Origin: Eledone cirrhosa
Lineage: Eukaryota
Direction: 5' to 3'
DNA: 64,000 nucleotides
NCBI GenBank assembly: GCA_964016885.1
Contig: OZ024743.1
Location: 59,520,001-59,584,000, forward strand
Part shown: positions 30,076-45,530 of the stretch, in pieces
How positions within the stretch are numbered: position 1 is the first letter of the stretch
How the letters are laid out: the number at the start of each line of letters is the position of its first letter
Notes under the pieces: model-generated
Seen by the model: only the letters and a program-made list of their open reading frames with translations
Told to the model about the DNA's origin: nothing
Database searches by the model: none
Program-made: the position numbers and the translations under genes

Positions 30076-30544
30076 TCTTTTCATTCGAAGAATATAAAAT
30101 TCTTGAATTTAAATTACGAACTAGCGCTATCCAAAACTGTTCCTGAGATGAGAGTGAATGAAGTGGAATCAATTTTTTCAAGGGCCGAAGTAAAGATAGA
30201 GGCAGAGGGAGGTAGGTCAAACCGGCCGCAACTATCACTAGCAGCAGTCAGAACGACCCAATTTGTCTCTCAACAATAGAGGAGAGTAGTAATAATAGGA
30301 TATGTGTTCCTTCACGCACAAGGCGCTAAGGGACGCATGTATTGTCCAACCAAATGCCAATGTGGTTCAATGGCAGGTTAATAAATTAACGAGCCAGAAC
30401 ATATATAAACAAGGTTTAGCAAATAATGAAAAAGTTTCAAAATAAATTTTAAAAAATTGACTTTACCTACTATAGTTACCTTTACCGATCGGTTTCGAAT
30501 CCCAAAAATAAACGGAGACCATATATATTCTTCGAATGAAAAGA

Positions 30545-30627
30545 ACCTTCTGACGAGAATCTTTCTTTGCAACGAAGGCCGTATGGTCTCCGTTTATTTT
30601 TGGGATTCGAAACCGATCGGTAAAGGT
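30545..30627 (+). ncRNA. Type I hammerhead ribozyme in the inverted segment
   Basis: Stem I 30545-49/30623-27, CTGACGA 30550-56, stem II 30557-61/30604-08, GAAA 30609-12; predicted cleavage after 30622. Confidence 0.88.
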
Positions 30628-30747
30628 AACTATAGTAGGTAAAGTCAATTTTTTAAAATTTATTTTGAAACTTTTTCATTATTTGCTAAACCTTGTTTAT
30701 ATATGTTCTGGCTCGTTAATTTATTAACCTGCCATTGAACCACATTG

Positions 30748-32007
30748 TATATATATATGTATATAATATATATATATATATATATATATATATGTATATA
30801 TATATGTATATATATATATATATATATATATATATATTATATATGAATGTATATATATATATATATATATATTATATGTATATATATATATATATATATG
30901 AATGTATATATATATATATATTATATATATGAATTATATATATATAATATATATATATGTATATATATATATATATATATATTATATATGAATGTATATA
31001 TATATATATATATATATATTATATATATATAATTTATATATATATGAATGTATATATATATATATATATATATATATATATATATATATGAATGTATATA
31101 TATATATATATATATATATATATATATATGTATATATACATATATATATATGAAATGTATATATATATATATATATATATATATATATATGTTATATATA
31201 CAATGTATATATATATATATATATATATATATATATATATATGTATATATACATATATATATATATATGTATATATACATATATATATATATATGTATAT
31301 ATACATATACATATATATATGAATGTATATATATATATATATATATATGTATATATACATATATATATATATGAATGTATATATATATATATATATGTAT
31401 ATATACATATATATATATATGAATGTATATATATATATATATATATATATATATATATATATATATATATATATATGTATATATATGTATATATACATAT
31501 ATATATATATGAATATATATATATATATATATGTATATATACATATATATATATATGAATGTATATATATATATATATATATATATATATATATATATAT
31601 ATGTATATATATTGTATATATATATATATATGTATATATATATATATATATATATATATGTATATATATATATATATATATATATGTATATATATATATA
31701 TATATATATATGTATATATATATATATATATATATATATATATATGTATATATATATATATATATATATGAATGTATATATATATATATATATGTATATA
31801 TACATATATATATATATGAATGTATATATATATATATATATATATATATACATTCATATATATATATATGTATATATACATATATATATATGTATATATA
31901 CATATATATATATATATATATATATATATATATATATATATATATATATATATATATATATATATATATATATATATATATATATATATATATACATATA
32001 TATATGT
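30748..32007. repeat. (TA)n compound microsatellite with TGAATG interruptions
   Basis: Directly visible. Confidence 0.95.
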
Positions 32008-41445: not shown

Positions 41446-42228
41446 TATTCAATTCTTTATCAATTTAGAATCTTTTCTCAAAGGCACATATACATACACC
41501 TCTTTAAAATATACCCATCTACCTTACTTTAAAGGGCATTATACACTCTATAATACTCGTTTACTCATTACCCTCATTCTATCTTCTCGTAAAACAATAA
41601 CATTTGTTTTTGACATTTTGAATATTCATCCGCAATCATTATTATTTTTTCTCTCTATCATAAATCTTTTTAATCTCAATTTCATCCTTAATTTATTATT
41701 ATATTTTTTTAAATATATACTCATATATTCTTTAAAATATACCCATCTACCTTACTTTAAAGGGCATTATACACTCTATAATACTCGTTTACTCATTACC
41801 CTCATTCTATCTTCTCGTAAAACAATAACATTTGTTTTTGACATTTTGAGTATTCATCCGCAATCATTATTATTTTTTCTCTCTATCATAAATCTTTTTA
41901 ATCTCAATTTCATCCTTAATTTATTATTATTATTTTTTTTTTTCTCCCCATCAACGAACTCATTATTAATACATATGAATTCAATATATATATATATGTA
42001 TGTATATATATAAATATATATATATATGTATGTATATATATATATATATATATATATATATATATATATGTATGTATATATATATATATATGTATGTATA
42101 TATATATATATATATGTGTATGTATATATATATGTATGTATGTATATATATATATGTATGTATATATATATATATATATATGTGTATGTATATATGTATG
42201 TATATATATATATATAATATATATATAT

Positions 42229-44563
42229 AGTTATAATAATAAATTCGAAGACTAAAATCCAAAGAGGGCTCGATAAGGATAGATATATATCAAATATATA
42301 AGAACCGTAGAGCAAATATTTATTAAAATAACAGATTAAAGTTTAAGCAAAGAATCGCTGCTTTCACCCTTAACGGGATTTTCTGAAACTAACAAAGTCA
42401 ATCTGTAAATGCAGAACTGGATATTTCAAAAAACGTTGCAACATAAATATAGTAAAATGTTTAATAGAAATACTTTTAACATTTCTTACTCTACGAATCC
42501 TAACCTTGCACATAACATCACAGCTTCAAATTTAGCTAAACTACCTAGCCGTAGGAACACGTGCAACCCTGTAGTTAGTACTAACTGTAATTGTAGGAAT
42601 CGGGCTGATTGCCCCCTATCCGGGAAATTCCTCTATAGTAACATTGTCTACAAATGTAAGGTTGTAACACCCACGTCCCGTAGGGACTACATAGGGTTAA
42701 CCGCCAATAGTTTCACGCAGCGTCTTTACATGCATACCAATTCTTTTCGTTACACTCTAAGAAGGAATATGACGTCACTTTCAGCTTATATCTGGAGTCT
42801 AAAAGACAACCACACCCAATATAAGTTACACTGGGAGATCCTAGCTAGGGCTAGATCGTATAACGGAAATAAAAAACCATGTGACCTCTGCGCCGCGGAG
42901 GCCCTGGAAATAATCTACGCCACAGACCACATCTTAAACAGAAAATCTGAGGCAATTTCGGCTTGTAAACATAAATTGCACAAAACATTCCTGTATTACA
43001 GCCCCACGTTATACCCTAACGGATAGTACGATCTATACGTGGATATTTCACGTCTTGATGTGGGAGCTAAGTATATGTTTTGTTTATTGCTTTACTTATT
43101 TGCATAGGTAAGTATATATTACCCGTTTGTTTTGTGAAGGTACGTATACCTTCTCGTACCTATATTTGATTGTTATGGCGTATAATTTTATATATCCTGG
43201 TACATAGGGTTTGGCTATATGTATACGGGAGTTTTGCGTCTGTGTGAGTATGCAGGTTTGTACGTATGGTGGGTGCGTGTATATGTGTACTTCTTGTTTT
43301 AGTTGACTTACGTCTCCGAACATTCGTGTATTTATATGTAGGTATGTGTGTGCGCTTGTTATATACGTATTTAATTATTTATATACGTTTATATAATTAT
43401 TTATTTATTTGTATACACGCATACACACACACACATATTTATATGTGCGTGGTTTTGTATACCTATGGTAATGTTTAACGTATGCTTGTGTATGTACGTA
43501 TTTGTTTGCTTGTGTATGTACGTATTTATTTATTTCTATTACTTCTGTATTGTATTTATTTATTTTGTTCTTAACTCTGTAGTGGAGATTCATTTGGTCT
43601 CCTAGTTAGAATGTTAGTCTACGACTTCTGCTATACCATTTATGTGGTTCGGTCTTTGCGTGCTATTGTTCTCCACGGTCCACATATGACGTATTATCTT
43701 CGATTTTTCGTTCATTGCCAGAGAACGTCTCTATGCACCACCTAAGAGAACATTAGTCTACGACCTCTTTTATATCATAAACGTGGTTCTGTCTTTGCGC
43801 GTAATTGCTTTTCACCGCTCCTATTAATGACGTATTATTCGTTTTTTCCCTTTCTTTGCCAGCGAACGTTTCCACGAACCAAAGTATCGTCTTCCTGTCT
43901 TCCCCCGGCTGCAACGTTTTTTGAAATATCCAGTTCTCCGTTTACAGATTGACTTTGTTAGTTTCAGAAGATCCCGTTAAGTGTGAAAGCAGCGATTATT
44001 TGTGAAAGCTGGCTAAGAACGGGAAAAAAGAATATAATACGTCATTAATAGGAGCGGTGAAAAACAATTACGCGCAAAGACAGAACCACGTTTATAGTAT
44101 AATAGAGGTCGTAGACTAATGTTCTCTTAGGTGGTGCATAGAGACGTTCTCTGGCGATGAACGAAAAAAACGAAGATAATACGTCATATATGGACCGTGA
44201 AGAACAATAGCACGCAAAGACCAAACCACGTAAATGGTATAGCAGAAGTCGTCGACTAAATTCTAACTAGGAGACCGAATGAATCTCCGCTACGGAGTTA
44301 AGAACAAAGTAAATAAATACAATACAGAAGTAATAGAAATAAATAAATACATACACGCAAACAGAAACGTACATACACAAGCATACGCAAAAACTTACCA
44401 TAGGTAAACAAAACCACGCACATATAAATATGTGTGTGTGTGTAAGCGTGTATACACATAAAAAAATAATTATATAAACGTATATAAATAAATAAATACG
44501 TATATAACAAGCGCACACACATACCTACATGTAAATACACGAATGTTCGGAGACGTAAGTCAA
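42229..44563 (+). mobile_element. Naiad-like PLE fragment with inverted segments on both sides
   Basis: 42229-42440 is an inverted pLTR end, 42441-43026 is a GIY-YIG ORF, the 3' UTR runs to ~44000, and ~44010-44563 is an inverted, diverged copy of ~43300-43865. Confidence 0.88.
42441..43026 (+). CDS. PLE GIY-YIG endonuclease domain (5'-truncated)
   Basis: HKYSKMFNRNTFNISYS, CNCRNRADCPLSGKFL, IVYKCKV...DYIGLT, CDLCAAE, LNRKSE...CKHK. Confidence 0.85.
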
Positions 44564-44690
44564 CCAATAGTCAACATTTATAAACCGAAAATACACACAT
44601 ATATATACATGCTTATATATATATATATATATATATATATATATATATATATATATATATATATATATATATATATATATATATATATAT

Positions 44691-45530
44691 ATGAAATGAT
44701 ACAGCCAATTTTCCACACAATACAATTAGTTAGCACCCCGAACGTTTAATTAGGAATATACTCAGGTATTTCCGAACGTTTCTTGAGTGAGTTGGAATTT
44801 GGCCGGAGTATCCCTATTAGCTTTCTCCGATTATGTATTTATATATTTACTCTTGGAGCAACAGATATGAACTTTCCCGATATAAGGTATGACTCTCCTT
44901 GTTTATATTTTTATATGAATATTGATTGCTTGTTCTTGTATCTCATTCTGTTATTTTGCCCGAGAAAATATCTATGTGTCATCAAGCGATGCGCACATTT
45001 TTTCATATCAGATTGAGTTCTAGCACGTGGATTGAATTCTTTTCAGAATTCATTGACCTGCACATGTATTGTTTTTTTGGCGGTAATCTCCTTCCTCCTA
45101 TTTTCGAGACAGTGTGAGATTTTCTTTAGAACTGTTGGACTAACAACCTAGCAGCTCCCTCTAGCACTGATGGTGATTATCGCTAAATATTGATGTTTAT
45201 TTGGTTATCAATATTAATATTATTGGGCTCCCACTGAAGAATTATAAGAGCCCACTTGAATAAGAATCTGTTGATCTTATACAAGCTTCTACATAAATTG
45301 GTATAATTTCACCCAACTTGTAGAAATCTTATAGTGAAACGAGACGTCCGTCTGGGAAGAAATATATTTAATATATCTCATATGAAATGATACAGCCAAT
45401 TTTCCACACAATACAATTAGTTAGCACCCCGAATGTTTAATTAGGAATATACTCTGGTATTTCCTAATATTTGTTGAGTGAGTTGGAATTTGGCCGGAGT
45501 ATCGCTAATAGCTTTCCCCGATTATGTATT
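44691..45530 (+). mobile_element. Retrozyme-like non-coding unit, 691-nt period with ~145-nt terminal redundancy
   Basis: 44691-44839 is repeated at 45382-45530. HHR at 45229-45357. (TA)n on both sides; no recognisable ORF. Confidence 0.8.
45229..45357 (+). ncRNA. Type I hammerhead ribozyme with branched stem II
   Basis: TCCCA-CTGAAGA-ATTATAAGA..(77 nt, two hairpins)..TCTTATAGT-GAAA-CG agacgtc CG-TC/TGGGA; GUC triplet at 45350-52. Confidence 0.85.

Follow-up and report, generated by a model that had tools for sequence, protein, structure and literature searches.

Introduction

Among described hammerhead ribozymes, the closest counterparts of the RNAs considered here are the SGC and CSG hammerheads, in which the strand on the 5' side of stem I pairs into a helix with the one lying 3' of the first strand of stem II (Eckert 2023, PMC10085705). 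Disruption of this helix abolished cleavage in SGC ribozymes, and its restoration revived it (PMC10085705). The type II pseudoknot hammerheads of phages and bacteria pair the same two strands, with a helix that was tested as activating there (Perreault 2011, PMC3088659). The minimal hammerheads of Penelope-like elements (PLEs) are described as lacking a contact between stems I and II and as slow in vitro (PMC4209133), and Naiads are described as being without canonical hammerheads, with a descriptor spacer of 7-17 nt (PMC8557442).

Here we analyse two repeat families, A and B, in a 64,000-nt stretch of Eledone cirrhosa DNA (the window), in each of which an earlier note had proposed a hammerhead with an extra five-base-pair helix. 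All of the coordinates and complementary strands given for the two units check (Table 1).

Results

Two repeat families with type I hammerhead motifs

Families A and B both contain the hammerhead core elements CUGANGA, GAAA and UH in type I order, together with the core-adjacent pairs R10.1-Y11.1 and A15.1-U16.1 (stems of 5/7/2-3 bp with G-C at 10.1 in A, and of 5/9/2 bp with A-U at 10.1 in B). Judged by these sequence elements, both are bona fide type I hammerhead motifs. When non-circular block orders were tried on all 38 cores in the window, the best parse of both families was CGS, i.e. type I, and not SGC or CSG. Rfam scans of the two loci returned no hammerhead family among 12 and 3 local matches at E≤10, so the earlier expectation that standard searches would miss both is borne out, and we attribute the miss to the long stem II insert. 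Over the whole window, the 150 of 288 Rfam matches listed are microsatellite and foldback miRNA/snoRNA-like matches alone.

Table 1. Positions in the window of the repeats, hammerheads and candidate helix strands of families A and B
Feature	Position	Strand	Details
Family A tandem array, 3.3 units of 486 nt, 99% alike	28943..30523	-	left end in (TA)n
Family A hammerhead with one core change	29021..29108	-	core CUGACGG
Family A hammerhead and helix strands	29507..29594	-	identical to + copy; reference stretch for read contigs
Family A hammerhead and helix strands	29993..30080	-	identical to + copy
Family A hammerhead, 3' half only	30478..30523	-	at truncated 5' end of array
Family A inverted arm, 224 nt, 5'-truncated	30524..30747	+	head-to-head with array; ends in (TA)n
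Family A extra helix, 5' strand AAAGA	30540..30544	+	directly 5' of stem I
Family A type I hammerhead, stem I 5 bp, stem II 7 bp with 38-nt insert	30545..30627	+	stem I 30545-49/30623-27; core CUGACGA 30550-56; stem II 30557-63/30602-08 (5 Watson-Crick + 2 G-U); GAAA 30609-12; palindromic stem III CCGATCGG 30613-20; cleavage site GUA, predicted cut after A30622 (30622/23)
Family A extra helix, 3' strand TCTTT	30564..30568	+	5' side of 7x7 internal loop
Family A hairpin capping stem II	30571..30594	+	from folding
Family B element, ~1.26 units of 691 nt	44673..45541	+	flanked by (TA)n tracts
Family B extra helix, 5' strand TGGGC	45224..45228	+	directly 5' of stem I
Family B type I hammerhead, stem I 5 bp, stem II 9 bp with 77-nt insert	45229..45357	+	stem I 45229-33/45353-57; core CUGAAGA 45234-40; stem II 45241-49/45327-35 (9 bp, one G-U); GAAA 45336-39; near-palindromic stem III; cleavage site GUC, predicted cut after C45352 (45352/53)
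Family B extra helix, 3' strand GCCCA	45250..45254	+	between stem II and hairpin 1
Family B hairpins 1 (45255-85) and 2 (45287-325)	45255..45325	+	multiloop on stem II; from folding

Both families are inserted in (TA)n and neither contains an open reading frame. In non-LTR retrozymes, such repeats stand in tandem and two or more units in a row carry a type I hammerhead. Family A has this structure, and its copy with the altered core is probably impaired; the present copy of family B does not have it. The inverted arm exceeds the array's own 3' end by ∼44 nt (30704-30747), an excess resembling the PLE 'tail' in the layout of PMC8557442. In family B, 44671-44849 recurs at 45362-45541 (∼180 nt, 92% identical); the element holds a single hammerhead, so that dimerisation in cis is impossible for this copy. 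Helix I of 5 bp, helix II of 7 (A) or 9 (B) bp and a palindromic stem III agree with the geometry of minimal PLE hammerheads, and we consider both families likely to be non-autonomous PLEs. The PLE association proposed earlier is plausible from insertion anatomy, but no adjacent reverse transcriptase within the window assigns either family to a PLE clade, and neither an ORF remnant nor a blastn link to the window's PLE fragments was found for A or B.

The stretch 40096-41442 we take to be Neptune-like by its motifs. A protein search with it gave no longer relatives and eight unnamed relatives of near length. A virus scan with the PLE fragment gave 17 candidates, none of them confirmed. A similar stem I/III is seen in a PLE 3' region at -39397 of the window, which, like the layout, is indirect evidence of a PLE link.

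A candidate five-base-pair helix in corresponding register

In both families the five nucleotides preceding stem I complement the five that follow the first strand of stem II, allowing five Watson-Crick pairs. The units show no sequence similarity to each other (blastn, word 7, E≤0.05), and the candidate helix occupies the same register in each. Position and length had been said to match. This holds for the five pairs at the stem ends, but not for the distance from the core: with stem II being 7 bp in A and 9 bp in B, the partner starts 7 versus 9 nt past the core, giving spacings (5' side, 3' side) of (5,7) and (5,9). Likewise, the 'branched stem II' is apt for B, with its two hairpins, and not for A, which has an internal loop and one hairpin. 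Stacking is weak in A (∼-5.3 kcal/mol, one G-C pair) and strong in B (∼-11.6 kcal/mol), where the helix is GC-rich within a 34% GC unit. By taking the terminal pairs of stems I and II, the helix could be extended to 6 bp in A and 7 bp in B. TCTTT occurs twice in family A, at 30560-64 and 30564-68.

A 5-bp match anywhere in the insert is expected by chance in 37-59% of cases, so register alone is informative. At the exact register, two nulls based on the unit itself put the chance at 0.15-0.6% per family, and insert shuffles that retain the first base put it at 1.3% (A) or 0.5% (B). Allowing up to 2 nt of slack raises it to 1-3%, and to 8% for A on shuffles of its pyrimidine-rich insert. Of the 38 CUGANGA sites in the window, all four family sites give 6 Watson-Crick pairs; among the other 34, one gives 5 bp (A/U only) and none gives 6. 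Pairing in matching register in both families is unlikely to have arisen by chance.

Comparison with described hammerheads

Read by eye from the oligonucleotide table of PMC10085705, the helix spacing is (5,7) in SGC-1 and SGC-2, equal to that of family A, (6,8) in SGC-3 and (7,6) in CSG-1 and CSG-2; the (5,9) of family B has no counterpart among the tested examples compared. HRIMA-1 from the same study has a 5-bp stem I, as do A and B. Families A and B differ from the SGC and CSG forms in their CGS order, in the 38-77-nt hairpin insert that closes stem II and in their palindromic stem III, and they are genomic repeats of a eukaryote, whereas SGC and CSG hammerheads come from metatranscriptome RNA.

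Among phage type II hammerheads, 52 of 107 pair the two corresponding strands with at least 4 bp, a length that the candidate helix of A and B also reaches. Their spacing is (7-9, 3-5) in nearly all 52 and never (5,7) or (5,9), stem II is 2-4 bp, and in type II pseudoknot hammerheads loop I is closed, whereas it is open in A and B. Phage type I hammerheads with a pseudoknot (stem I 4-5 bp, stem II 5-8 bp) share the permutation and stem lengths of A and B, but their short loop II pairs with the 3' tail rather than the 5' flank. Across 90 phage type I examples the 3' tail pairs more often than the 5' flank (19 versus 8), and a 5' flank helix at the A/B register was found in none of 22 with stem I ≤5 and stem II ≥5 bp. 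A 3'-tail pseudoknot of the phage kind was also considered by eye for our families: B has a 5-bp A/U-rich match in the loop of hairpin 2, A has nothing, and the match is likely due to chance. The PK hammerhead that resembles pistol (Zhan 2024, PMC11300833) is fast and, like A and B, has its pseudoknot partner 5' of helix I; there, however, the pseudoknot takes the place of helix II, and its partner is found in a hairpin loop with an A-minor linker, whereas helix II of A and B is of full length.

Minimal PLE and non-LTR retrozyme hammerheads (PMC4209133; PMC7229834; bioRxiv 10.64898/2026.07.22.740005) share with A and B the type I order, a helix I of 4-5 bp, a helix II of 7-8 bp, a palindromic stem III, ORF-less tandem repeats and (TA)n targets. 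They are described as slow and as having no stem I-II contact; one more nucleotide follows A9, and their loop II is short. In A and B stem II begins directly after the core, the insert is long and the candidate helix is present.

The (+) hammerhead of the cereal (barley) yellow dwarf virus-RPV satellite resembles A and B in its short helix I, its long interrupted helix II, its contact between stems I and II and, by our comparison, its double-hammerhead cleavage; it differs in its closed loop I, its plant satellite host RNA and the rate-lowering effect of the contact, a 5-bp L1-L2a helix. The earlier note left aside that a contact of this sort can slow cleavage, as PMC3152364 reports for the barley yellow dwarf satellite.

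The proposal of an undescribed subtype survives in narrower form. The contact itself is known (PMC10085705; PMC3088659); what is new is the candidate helix in a type I hammerhead with a 38-77-nt insert in an animal mobile repeat, and the Lunse 2017 alignments could contain such variants.

Searches for the architecture elsewhere

Of the nematode Naiad consensus ends in PMC8557442 File S5, all seven examined by eye carry the helix (7-16 bp, of different sequence in each) in CSG order; a literature search found no published report of CSG hammerheads with the helix in nematode Naiads. No hammerhead core was seen by eye in the 380 nt of bivalve Naiad ends examined. A metagenome pattern scan gave 13 matches, none with a convincing stem II, which we read as chance, mostly in GC-rich DNA. 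Virus scans for the A and B 3' motifs returned 0 and 0, and a virus scan for type I hammerheads with a long stem II returned at least 120 loci, drawn from 13 of 64 parts; of these 120, 2 pass the stem filter and none has the helix.

Variation within family A

Similarity of position in two non-homologous RNAs had been taken to look like full covariation, but does not constitute covariation. Within family A, comparison of 661 contigs from run X2 with the reference stretch revealed no compensatory change, and none of the changes listed at ≥8% falls in the core, stem I, stem III or the helix. Stem II has two substitutions, one leaving a G-U and the other at the terminal wobble. Variable positions number 2 of 88 in the ribozyme versus 10 of 183 in the flanks, which is not significant (p=0.35). 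Runs X5, X11 and X12 gave 1, 3 and 6 contigs, too few for covariation. No RNA run appears among the sequencing runs listed for family A, an absence to which we give no weight. Two sister families, visible solely as loose ends (X2 and X12 at 29581), could form only 3 Watson-Crick pairs with the family A flank; no flank change is listed for the X12 sister-family contig. Both read depth and matches in other organisms peak 3' of the ribozyme, at a motif at 29449-29487, so this region bears constraints besides the ribozyme.

Folding predictions

When stems I and II are constrained to form, the 3' strand of the helix is predicted to be unpaired at p≥0.85 in both families. In unconstrained nested folds the helix shuts out stems I and II (p 0.6-1.0 versus ≤0.3); its extended form prevails, and the hammerhead fold is less favourable by 2.6-7 kcal/mol. 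It is important to bear in mind that nested folding is unable to score pseudoknots, so this exclusion is inherent in the model. The stem III self-duplex is predicted at -16.6 (A) and -14.7 (B) kcal/mol, versus -0.9 and 0 for the monomer hairpin, a preference for the duplex also seen in PLE dimer hammerheads (PMC4209133). For A, the helix appears as a plain hairpin in the predicted linear monomer and is missing from the predicted circular MFE.

Discussion

Our preferred explanation, which we consider reasonably probable, is that the helix is an activating brace, a pseudoknot keeping stems I and II alongside each other and speeding cleavage. It would stand in for the usual loop-loop contact between these stems. 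As modelled, the helix would form first and close a 19-21-nt loop displaying the 5' strand of stem I, CUGANGA and the 5' strand of stem II, and its 3' strand would remain free once stems I and II have formed. Stem III is predicted to be far stabler when it pairs two units than when it folds into a hairpin. Neighbouring units may form a dimer that cleaves at GUA in A and at GUC in B, yielding unit-length RNA of 486 or 691 nt, which is likely circularised and could be copied into (TA)n again by an autonomous PLE through its RT-endonuclease. The insert hairpins are likely tolerated cargo at the end of stem II.

A real helix might instead act as an attenuator, although we think this unlikely: it would form during transcription, extend to 6-7 bp at the expense of stems I and II, and leave monomer or circle uncut until remodelled by a dimer or a protein. 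The preference of unconstrained folding for the extended helix is what one would then expect, and the yellow dwarf satellite hammerhead combines a 4-bp helix I and a long interrupted helix II (PMC1636495, Table 1) with a rate-lowering peripheral contact (PMC3152364) and a requirement for a double hammerhead. However, the exclusion seen in nested folds is built into the method, active SGC-1 and SGC-2 carry such a helix at the (5,7) spacing, and SGC-3 requires it (PMC10085705).

We are slightly more sceptical of chance pairing, at least in A, which would leave ordinary PLE-type hammerheads with an enlarged loop II. The feature was picked after the data were seen, slack raises the family A figure to 3-8%, and the A helix is A/U-rich, pairs at just 3 positions in the sister families and shows no covariation; yet with one family taken as the hypothesis the other matches at ∼0.2-3%, the B helix is GC-rich in an AT-rich unit, no control site reaches 6 bp, and the position is that of an established hammerhead contact. 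A non-catalytic role, in circular-RNA folding or as a feature near the 3' end of the element that the PLE reverse transcriptase recognises, is very improbable: the plain hairpin in the linear monomer of A and the peak 3' of the ribozyme speak for it, but the register is fixed by the ends of stems I and II, pointing to ribozyme geometry, and the helix is missing from the circular fold.

More tentatively, and with somewhat less than even confidence, we suggest that PLEs have in common a 'CUGANGA module' closed by a helix (flank, stem I strand, core, stem II strand and partner), and that the order in which the GAAA and cleavage-site blocks dock onto it is free. On this suggestion the order would be type I with a long insert in A and B, CSG in nematode Naiads and, it seems, SGC in other Naiads.

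With a base-paired brace, a type I hammerhead from a retroelement would allow a direct disrupt-and-restore test of how such ribozymes attain useful rates. The two families indicate that 40-80 nt of cargo can sit on stem II, and they define a search pattern missed by current Rfam models. The by-eye parse of nematode Naiads would bring seven more members to a form first described in 2023 on the basis of two sequences, and would place CSG hammerheads in animal retrotransposons. If the CUGANGA module is true, PLE hammerheads are not generally contact-less and slow, Naiads are not without hammerheads, and a sizeable class of animal genomic ribozymes has been missed by short-stem-II descriptors.

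The hammerheads of two unrelated repeat units

A descriptor search allowing stem II up to 250 nt recovered the hammerhead motifs of both repeat families at the places assigned to them by the earlier note. The window holds three intact copies of family A and a fourth with a core change, but a single copy of family B. As the note had also maintained, the two units are unrelated, in that no sequence similarity was found between them, and its expectation that standard searches would miss both was borne out by an Rfam scan, which returned no hammerhead at the family A or family B sites. 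A branched stem II, proposed for both, is present in family B only; the stem II insert of family A is a 7x7 internal loop with one hairpin.

Features of the window, with their positions and particulars
Feature	Position (sign or bracket, strand)	Particulars
Family A hammerhead	near 30540..30627 (+)	in 486-nt unit
Family B hammerhead	near 45224..45357 (+)	in 691-nt unit
Family A array		3.3 units of 486 nt, minus strand; head-to-head inverted 224-nt arm; 44-nt tail; (TA)n at either end
Family B element		1.26 units of 691 nt, flanked by (TA)n tracts
Predicted AU-rich hairpin	30495-30537 region (A, sense copy in array); 45186-45221 (B)	ends ~2 nt before 5' helix strand
Motif of roughly 40 nt	29449-29487	3' of family A hammerhead
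Third hammerhead-like family, minimal	-63764, -45708, +55803/-55629, +58901/-59214	chiefly within foldback repeats; stem II extended, its fourth pair a C-C or C-U mismatch; stem III TATATA-like; partly decayed
Fourth hammerhead-like motif	+57270/-56185	in 56058-57397 inverted repeat; rod-like stem II of roughly 50 nt; without flank helix
Degenerate short-stem-II hammerhead	-39397; also 12805-12914, 6932-6965, 12174-12207	motif at -39397 in 3' region of PLE-like fragment 40096-41445; its stems I (CCTT/AAGG) and III (CCGG) are like those of family A
PLE-like RT-thumb/GIY-YIG fragments	40096-41445, 42409-43026, 13049-13444	related to one another
PLE-like RT-thumb/GIY-YIG fragments	10849-11376, 59647-60099	Pfam GIY-YIG matches just under cut-off
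LINE fragments with RVT_1	32029-34130 (-), 34652-37338 (+)	one with endonuclease domain; set in microsatellite tracts

The flank helix and its known counterparts

In both families the 5 nt immediately before stem I and the 5 nt immediately after the first stem II strand, which together would form the flank helix, are complementary at all five bases. The same two strands pair in 52 of 107 phage type II hammerheads, where the helix mostly starts 7-9 nt upstream and 3-5 nt downstream of the CUGANGA core. Among phage type I hammerheads, those of comparable stem lengths instead pair the 3' tail, and the 5' flank in 0/22; a loop II/3'-tail pseudoknot occurs at L276, L277, L282, L286, L325, L331, L348, L349, L354, L357, L375 and L383, loci with a stem I of 4-5 bp and a long or bulged stem II. 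The spacings of family A (5 nt before the core, 7 after) and family B (5,9) thus differ from those of the phage samples. Read by eye from the oligonucleotide table of PMC10085705, ribozymes of other block orders have spacings of (5,7) for SGC-1 and SGC-2, which is that of family A, (6,8) for SGC-3 and (7,6) for CSG-1/-2. In SGC-3, disruption of the helix abolished cleavage and compensation restored it (PMC10085705). The PK hammerhead described in PMC11300833 differs in topology from both families. The contact itself, put forward as possibly undescribed, is therefore already known from SGC ribozymes and phage type II hammerheads. Its combination with type I order, a long hairpin insert and animal retroelement-like repeats was not found in the literature searched; Lunse 2017 and Arkhipova 2017 lie outside that search and may bear on it.

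With stems I and II forced, predicted folding leaves the 3' helix strand single-stranded (p at least 0.85) and the 5' strand largely unpaired. Unconstrained, the flank helix dominates and stems I and II are excluded, an exclusion inevitable in a nested model. This predicted outcome is compatible with a pseudoknot and with an off-state alike. An off-state would make the helix an attenuator of cleavage. Activating pseudoknots are reported in all three hammerhead types (Perreault 2011), but the barley yellow dwarf satellite contact, which lowers the rate, is a counter-example (PMC3152364; stem lengths, PMC1636495 Table 1). We regard attenuation as doubtful.

Chance, covariation and Penelope-like relatives

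The probability of a chance flank helix is 0.15-0.6% per family at the exact register, rising to 1-3% when two bases of slack are allowed and to as much as 8% for family A in shuffles of its own insert. Among the window's 38 CUGANGA sites, at the registers tested, a 6-bp Watson-Crick helix occurs at the 4 family sites; the other 34 include one with 5 bp and none with 6 bp.

To the earlier note, the differing bases looked like full covariation. Contigs from four sequencing runs were mapped onto one family A copy: 661 from run X2, and 1, 3 and 6 from the others. At a threshold of at least 8%, the X2 contigs show no change in core, stem I, stem III or flank helix. Stem II carries two changes, one retaining a G-U pair and the other at the terminal wobble, and a single base is inserted in an unpaired loop; variable positions number 2/88 in the ribozyme against 10/183 in the flanks, a contrast that is not significant. 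Loose contig ends point to sister families with a different stem II, two of which, at offsets 7 and 9, make only three pairs with the family A flank, their own flanks being visible in part. Given no helix change at that threshold in X2, 1-6 contigs elsewhere and partly visible sister flanks, the covariation claim is unsupported. No relatives were found in public viral and metagenome collections. The 29449-29487 motif, where X2 depth is greatest and which otherwise unrelated contigs of runs X11 and X12 also match, is possibly a shared 3'-end signal, or else low complexity.

Craig 2021 labelled some Naiads 'HHR_core' or 'HHR_half_core' (PMC8557442), and we inspected by eye the 3' ends of about 30 consensus sequences in File S5 of that paper. 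All seven nematode ends inspected (Naiad_Parc, Naiad-1/2/3_Nbra, Naiad_Hcon, Naiad_Hpol, Naiad_Asuum) read as CSG hammerheads, with fully pairing stems I (4-6 bp), II (4-5 bp) and III (6-12 bp) and, at the flank-helix position, a 7-16-bp helix of different sequence in each; for several of them the authors' sole label is HHR_core or half_core. No report of CSG hammerheads in Naiads was found in the literature searched (Naiad + hammerhead; CSG + retrotransposon). By eye, these entries show PLE-borne hammerheads that would use the flank helix; this makes a functional helix in the window more likely. We consider it unlikely that the complementarity is fortuitous, and a non-catalytic role for the helix very improbable.

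Other entries vary. By eye, several spider and cephalopod Naiads resemble SGC with a weak stem II; Naiad_Ptep, Smim, Ovul/Obim and the entry before Naiad_Ppla have S-G-C block order, in which stems I and III pair well and stem II is weak or missing; Darwinula Naiads show, again by eye, a 7-bp helix spaced (7,3); bivalve entries revealed no hammerhead core by eye in the stretch inspected. PLE-X1_sMoe (PMC8557442 File S2), a published 'deviating' PLE hammerhead, combines a stem II of 9 bp with a 34-nt loop that contains a hairpin; 5 nt just after its stem II are complementary to 5' flank sequence lying 12 nt upstream of the core.

Host repeats and a proposed mechanism

The window is AT-rich eukaryotic DNA with many (TA)n tracts, LINE fragments and GIY-YIG fragments. 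By their motifs, the three mutually related PLE-like fragments look Neptune-like. Neither unit has its own 150-aa ORF, nor a remnant of the four GIY-YIG/PLE-like fragments tested. Stem III is palindromic in both families and predicted folding makes the two-unit duplex far more stable, a mark of PLE dimer hammerheads (PMC4209133); the family A layout is an insertion layout described for PLEs (PMC8557442). This insertion anatomy makes a PLE association plausible. With its PLE-like layout, lack of such an ORF and duplex-favouring stem III, family A would fit the non-LTR retrozyme definition and proposed PLE origin (PMC7229834; bioRxiv 10.64898/2026.07.22.740005).

We propose that the flank helix would be the first to form, and would then act as a pseudoknot that braces stems I and II. 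Neighbouring units would probably be cleaved as dimers through the palindromic stem III, and the unit-length RNA is likely to be circularised and then reinserted in trans by a PLE enzyme. Taken as a whole, we judge this pathway, from brace to reinsertion, reasonably probable.
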